A DNA stretch of 64,000 nucleotides, taken from Escherichia coli (GTDB taxonomy: Bacteria > Pseudomonadota > Gammaproteobacteria > Enterobacterales > Enterobacteriaceae). The stretch lies in the NCBI RefSeq assembly GCF_030384885.1, contig NZ_CP128613.1; one strand, 5' to 3'. Every line of letters begins with the position of its first letter. Position 1 is the first letter of the stretch. Under the pieces are notes generated by a model. That model was not told the origin of the DNA. It was given only the letters and a program-made list of their open reading frames with translations, and did not search any database. Shown in pieces: positions 54,839 through 55,164 of the stretch. The position numbers were made by a program, and so were the translations under genes.

Positions 54839-55093
54839 ATCGTGTGAACGGGGCGCATATTAATGGCAGTGCATGGTGATGTCAAAGGGTGAAATGCATT
54901 TTTTTGTTTGTTTGCTGTCAATTTCAACAAAGTGGTGAGCTTTCAATCTTATTGGGTAATGAACCATCGTGGTGCATACCCTCCTTTTATAGGGCAGGGG
55001 AACGCGACAGCTGATTAAAGGAGCCAATGACGAATCTATCATAATCTCTTATTTGACAGTTGCTTAGCTTGTACATCAACGCCAAAATAAAAC

Positions 55094-55109
55094 TGGCAAG
55101 CATCTTGCA
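55094..55109 (+). promoter_or_regulatory. Sigma-54 (-24/-12) promoter of nac
   Basis: tGGcaagcatctTGCa about 55 nt upstream of the nac start; possible NtrC half-site cgtggtgcata near 54965. Confidence 0.7.
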
Positions 55110-55164
55110 CTCTGGTTGTAAGTAATGGCGGCACTTGGGCCGATTCTTAAACACCGGAGGCAAC

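Follow-up and report, generated by a model that had tools for sequence, protein, structure and literature searches.

How is the transcription of nac controlled in this strain of Escherichia coli, and at which exact positions do the controlling elements lie? The gene was studied within the window, by which we mean the whole 64-kb stretch of DNA that was analyzed. It is a segment of the E. coli chromosome with the gene order cobS, cobT, ldtA (erfK), tRNA-Asn, nac, cbl, tRNA-Asn and yeeO. The nac coding sequence (305 codons and a stop, 55165-56082, with its ATG at 55165) and that of cbl (56184-57134) are on the plus strand. The two tRNA-Asn copies are on the minus strand, the upstream one (asnV, 54763-54838) between ldtA and nac and the second (57172-57247) between cbl and yeeO. 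The nac product is a LysR family protein that matches the NCBIfam NAC equivalog NF008410 over its full length (residues 1-305) with 598 bits against a cut-off of 309, which assigns it to that equivalog. RefSeq likewise annotates the gene as nac, in the context cobT-ldtA-tRNA-Asn-nac-cbl.

Positions 54960-55164 are the control region of nac. Very probably, this region contains a σ54-dependent promoter served by an NtrC enhancer at -152, with a site for Nac itself in the loop between the two. A preliminary description of the locus had found it consistent with the known nitrogen-limitation control of nac, and this was borne out, as both the σ54 promoter and the NtrC site coincide with published sites in K-12.

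Complete E. coli genomes nearly all (5,424 of 5,426) have a match to a 701-nt query around the nac promoter. Identity of at least 99% over the 701 nt is limited to 17 E. coli records (best, strain 2013C-4282 with 99.9%), so that the nac locus of the window is a minority allele within the species.

The σ54 element of nac

The motif TGGCAA-N5-TTGCA had been placed at 55094-55109, and it lies precisely there on the plus strand. Together with the preceding C it forms the 17-mer CTGGCAAGCATCTTGCA at 55093-55109, a -24/-12 element for σ54 (RpoN) that ends 56 nt 5' of the nac ATG. Compared with TGGCAC-N5-TTGCW, the sequence TGGCAAgcatcTTGCA at 55094-55109 has a single mismatch (A for C at -21), and its GG (55095-55096) and GC (55107-55108) doublets have the 10-bp spacing that such promoters require. 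Orientation and distance also suit nac, with the element on the plus strand and the predicted start 45 nt 5' of the ATG.

This is the sole match to TGGCAN6TTGCW in the window. By chance alone, a window would hold 0.57 matches to a pattern this loose, and at least one match was present in 43 of 100 shuffled sequences, so the match alone proves little. The window was also scanned with a weight matrix derived from 47 in vivo σ54 sites given by Bonocora et al. (2015), with nac excluded from the training set. The nac element ranked first among 127,968 positions with 18.4 bits (runner-up, 14.6 bits), a score reached in only 3% of shuffled windows. The training sites span 9.0 to 19.3 bits with a median of 15.5, which puts the nac element within their range and above their median.

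The next-best matrix matches in the window were at 7115-7131 (plus strand, 14.6 bits), 21333-21349 (minus strand, 14.0 bits) and 57485-57501 (plus strand, inside yeeO, 13.9 bits). These scores are close to that of the best match in a shuffled sequence (mean 14.75 bits), and the three sites are therefore probably due to chance.

In K-12, the identical 17-mer is the σ54 ChIP-seq site OS19, assigned to nac and centered at 2060021 on the minus strand, with a FAT score of 24 and a PSSM score of 11.67 that is among the higher intergenic values (Bonocora et al. 2015). In gSELEX, RpoN holoenzyme gave peaks in the nac/asnV spacer both with and without NtrC, and NtrC alone gave a peak there as well. The published in vivo occupancy of the same 17-mer in K-12 supports the prediction that σ54 would also occupy 55093-55109 in the window strain.

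A terminator-like hairpin can be drawn on the minus strand at 55108-55096. We dismissed it as arising from the promoter element itself, because the TGGCA...TTGCA consensus is self-complementary and the stem is lost in genera with other spacers.

The NtrC enhancer

The preliminary description had noted cgtggtgcata, at about 54961-54980, as an NtrC half-site located about 130 bp upstream of the promoter. Both the sequence, at 54968-54978, and the distance hold up, but the enhancer was under-called, since these letters are the right arm of a complete 17-bp dyad. The dyad, TGAACCAtcgTGGTGCA at 54960-54976 (no strand assigned), is a high-affinity site for NtrC (NRI); its center at 54968 lies at -152 from the predicted start and 133 bp 5' of the center of the promoter motif (55101). 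It thus stands where an enhancer of this kind belongs, at least about 100 bp upstream of a σ54 promoter and with a spacing that depends on helical phase. Read as TGAACCATCGTGGTGCA, it has one mismatch to TGCACCANNNTGGTGCA (TGCACCA-N3-TGGTGCA), for which 0.01 matches are expected per window by chance; one was found in 1 of 100 shuffled sequences. In Escherichia the left arm (TGAACCA or TGTTCCA) is weaker than the TGCACC of other genera.

The dyad sequence is identical in K-12, where binding has been reported. The EcoCyc NtrC site for nac is at 2060154 (U00096.2), 11 bp from an NtrC ChIP-seq peak at 2060143 (Aquino et al. 2017, Supplementary Table S1), and when its coordinate is mapped onto the window it falls on 54968, the exact center of the dyad. 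Another ChIP-seq study found an NtrC peak at nac-cbl with 59.6-fold enrichment (Brown et al. 2014). NtrC binding at 54960-54976 in the window strain is accordingly a prediction supported by the K-12 ChIP-seq and gSELEX results at the homologous site.

The bin of the Brown et al. (2014) peak, 2059941-2060021 (about 55101-55181 in the window), overlies the nac promoter and the beginning of the gene, some 130-200 bp downstream of the dyad. Limited resolution could account for this offset, as could cross-linking through the loop.

Conservation of the promoter architecture

Scanning one genome per species yielded 80 nac loci, spread over about 20 genera of the Enterobacteriaceae; with the window and K-12 added, 82 upstream regions were available. 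TGGCA-N6-TTGCA is present in all 82, counting locus L066 by this conserved motif where one scan had picked another. From the C of the -12 GC doublet to the ATG the distance is 55-61 nt, except in two Pseudocitrobacter loci, where it is 48 nt.

In 73 of the 82 regions, among them two Superficieibacter loci with -153, the NtrC-like dyad is centered at -150 to -153; the center is at -140/-141 in the two from Pseudocitrobacter and at -130/-131 in seven from Kluyvera and a relative. The displacements of about 11 and about 21-22 bp correspond to one and two helical turns, in steps of about 10.5 bp, as one would predict for an enhancer that has to face the promoter. This comparison provides confirmation at the sequence level that the spacing between enhancer and promoter shifts only by whole helical turns, and it agrees with the face-of-helix dependence that reportedly was demonstrated biochemically for the K. 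aerogenes nac promoter.

One of the loci, on a contig titled Chryseobacterium sp. 18061, is an Enterobacteriaceae-type nac locus with a Nac protein 82% identical, the same promoter architecture and a tRNA-Asn upstream. The assembly is probably mislabeled or contaminated.

A degenerate second block next to the dyad

Centered at -132, 20 bp or two helical turns from the dyad, is a candidate second and weak NtrC site, CCTCCTTTTATAGGGCA at 54980-54996 (no strand assigned). In other genera the block reads ATACCCCTnATGGGGCA, at -131/-132, and it lies 20 bp 3' of the dyad in 64 of the 82 regions. The version shared by the window and K-12 is degenerate, with mismatches to the NtrC consensus at 8 of 14 positions, and it has TAGGGCA in place of an otherwise near-invariant TGGGGCA, a change of G to A. 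Across the genera, the ATACCCCTnATGGGGCA block is conserved as well as the dyad is, despite its own poor match to the NtrC consensus (5-7 mismatches).

The E. coli enhancer might therefore consist of the dyad alone, with 54980-54996 no longer binding NtrC and a single DNA-bound dimer joined by dimers from solution. Such an arrangement would explain why nac requires a high level of NtrC~P, and the degeneracy of the block in both the window and K-12, including the G-to-A change, speaks for it. EcoCyc gives only one NtrC site for nac (table in Aquino et al. 2017), and a 2023 paper classes nac among the NtrC promoters with weak enhancers, both of which fit an enhancer with a single dyad. However, the block has stayed at exactly 20 bp from the dyad, and in other genera its right arm is conserved as well as the right arm of the dyad. 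The K. aerogenes nac promoter, moreover, is said to have one strong and one adjacent weak NtrC site, the weak one seen by footprinting, and by position the ATACCCCTnATGGGGCA block is what we take to be that adjacent low-affinity site. We regard loss of the second site in E. coli as a tenable reading, though the less probable one, and retain the model in which the dyad is the main binding site and the block may assist it weakly.

A Nac site between enhancer and promoter

Between the enhancer and the promoter lies ATCATAATCTCTTAT, a sequence of the form ATC-N9-TAT at 55038-55052 (no strand assigned), with its center at 55045, or -75. It departs at one position from the published consensus ATA-N9-TAT for Nac, a LysR-type protein, and it qualifies as an operator-type site. 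In K-12, the EcoCyc Nac site for nac is at 2060077, with a Nac ChIP-seq peak 27 bp away at 2060104 (Aquino et al. 2017, Supplementary Table S1). On mapping to the window, the EcoCyc site falls on 55045, the exact center of ATC-N9-TAT. Repression from within the loop is cited for the Klebsiella nac promoter in a 2016 paper. The site at 55038-55052 is the probable autorepression site of nac; a search for Nac autoregulation in a Nac ChIP-exo paper returned nothing usable.

Most of the orthologous regions have AT[CT]-N9-TAT at -74 to -76, and the motif is missing where deletions of helical turns have occurred. Thus the seven loci of the Kluyvera group and the two of Pseudocitrobacter have lost it along with the shortening of the distance between enhancer and promoter, and autorepression of nac may be absent in these bacteria. 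The loop was also searched for a binding site for IHF, and no sequence with at most one mismatch to WATCAANNNNTTR was present in 54977-55093.

The divergent asnV promoter

The spacer upstream of nac also holds the promoter of the divergent tRNA gene. On the minus strand at 54885-54857 we found a strong σ70 promoter for asnV, TTGACA-17-TAATAT, that matches at 10 of 12 positions and is followed by a GC-rich discriminator; a stretch rich in A/T lies upstream of it. At about -71 of asnV there is a conserved palindrome, TTGCTGTCAATTTCAACAA at 54912-54930 (no strand assigned), which reads TTGCTGACAAnnTCAGCAA in other genera. Its center is exactly 82.5 nt from the 5' end of the mature tRNA in 65 of 66 loci, while relative to the start of nac it ranges from -180 to -228. 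With spacing that is locked to the tRNA gene and variable relative to nac, the palindrome belongs to asnV, and we rejected it as a third NtrC site or other element of nac. A location near -71 is usual for FIS site I in stable-RNA promoters; the placement of the palindrome resembles that of such a site, and its match to the FIS consensus is partial.

The shared spacer raises the question of which of the two genes the NtrC dyad serves. With respect to the predicted asnV start, the dyad is about 118 bp away on the upstream side, and it might in principle act mainly on asnV, for instance by allowing repression in nitrogen starvation. We consider this very unlikely, as the distance of the dyad from the nac promoter is either fixed (-150 to -153) or changed by whole turns, it is instead the palindrome at 54912-54930 that keeps a set spacing to asnV, and NtrC is known as an activator of σ54 promoters whereas the asnV promoter is of the σ70 type.

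Transcription start and leader

The transcription start was predicted by the rule of Bonocora et al. (2015), according to which it lies 12 nt downstream of the C in the -12 GC doublet, or 19 nt downstream of the motif center. This gives the A at 55120 and a leader of 45 nt on the plus strand (55120-55164), with GGAGG at 55156-55160 preceding the ATG. The same study predicts the K-12 start 45 nt before nac and flags it as "experimentally confirmed in EcoCyc" (Bonocora et al. 2015). From the OS19 center at 2060021, with the start 19 bp downstream and 45 bp before the gene, the ATG is placed at 2059957 (U00096.2), which corresponds to 55165 in the window; on this mapping the motif center is 55101 and the predicted start 55120. 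The earlier suggestion of a start near 55120 therefore equals the K-12 prediction. A literature search that did not reach the primary papers on the nac promoter returned no experimentally mapped start.

No σ70-like promoter match was present on the plus strand of the spacer, and a σ70 promoter for nac was ruled out on this basis. That the motifs are chance matches and nac is transcribed from elsewhere, either from a σ70 promoter in the spacer or by read-through from ldtA, has next to nothing to recommend it beyond the 0.57 σ54 patterns expected per window, given the top matrix score of the nac element, the chance expectation of 0.01 for the dyad, the conserved sequence and placement of both elements in about 20 genera, the published in vivo occupancy by σ54 and NtrC of the identical K-12 sequence, the plus strand free of σ70-like matches and the divergent tRNA-Asn, with its own promoter, between ldtA and nac.

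A small hairpin, CGGC-acttgg-GCCG, can form in the leader at 55129-55142. Among 68 distinct leaders its columns pair in 68% of the cells, compared with 30-45% when the partner is slid by one to three columns, and some two-sided changes occur (AU/GC, UA/CG). RNAalifold found no consensus structure for the leader RNA, and we did not accept a conserved leader structure. The covariation hints weakly at conservation of this one small hairpin.

A model for the control of nac

Taken together, these elements suggest the following course of events. The σ54 holoenzyme would sit on 55093-55109 as a closed complex that is unable to open on its own. Under nitrogen limitation, NtrC~P would bind the dyad at 54960-54976, possibly aided by the weak block at 54980-54996, then oligomerize, reach the polymerase by looping out about 150 bp of DNA and spend ATP to open the promoter. 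Transcription would begin near 55120 and produce the 45-nt leader. Nac, once made, would bind ATC-N9-TAT at 55038-55052, inside the loop, and damp its own synthesis. For the start site, the looping and the autorepression, this model draws on studies of E. coli and K. aerogenes, and activity of the promoter in the window strain is what we infer from the match to these systems. With promoter, enhancer and Nac operator all intact, the cascade from NtrC to Nac in nitrogen starvation is expected to work as it does in K-12.

The feature is already known and its mechanism is a textbook one. The preliminary description had offered a precise promoter location in this strain. The coordinates of promoter, enhancer and Nac operator are now fixed exactly, which is of value mainly for annotation; otherwise, nothing was added to what the known annotation holds.

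Comparison with known systems

The closest known system is the nac promoter of E. coli K-12 (nacp; Muse and Bender 1998; EcoCyc; OS19). The -24/-12 17-mer, the dyad, the Nac site, their spacing and the length of the leader are all identical to those of the window, as is the synteny ldtA - tRNA-Asn - nac - cbl. When the spacer between asnV and nac is aligned over 332 nt with its counterpart in the K-12 derivative MC4100, the two differ by five SNPs (55025, 55063, 55081, 55110 and 55152), and the dyad, the Nac site and the -24/-12 core are free of them. The one feature peculiar to this strain is the base at 55110 (-10), directly after TTGCA, where the window has a rare C and K-12, along with nearly all other Enterobacteriaceae examined, has an A. 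Of 5,416 E. coli records, just 14 have the same 66-nt promoter stretch as the window. This C adjoins the -12 GC region, where σ54 holds the DNA closed. It could alter the opening of the nac promoter and make the response to nitrogen leakier or tighter, and the block at -132 could bind something other than weakly held NtrC, but we think such departures from the K-12 scheme improbable.

The nac promoters of Klebsiella aerogenes and K. pneumoniae have the same layout, with a dyad at about -152, a block at about -132, AT[CT]-N9-TAT at -75 and CTGGCAAGCAAATTGCA at -24/-12. They differ from the window in a better left arm of the dyad (TGCACC) and in a complete TGGGGCA in the second block, and the spacer is otherwise unrelated.

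The glnAp2 and glnK promoters of E. coli share with nac the activator NtrC, σ54 and looping from an upstream enhancer. They differ from nac in that nac has a Nac repressor site inside its loop. The 2023 paper quotes expression data in which nac is silent as long as ammonium is present and is induced about 60-fold by a fall in glutamine. It also contrasts the enhancers, citing Atkinson 2002: glnAp2, with two high-affinity sites, responds to low levels of NtrC~P, whereas nac, with its weaker enhancer, fires only on real starvation.
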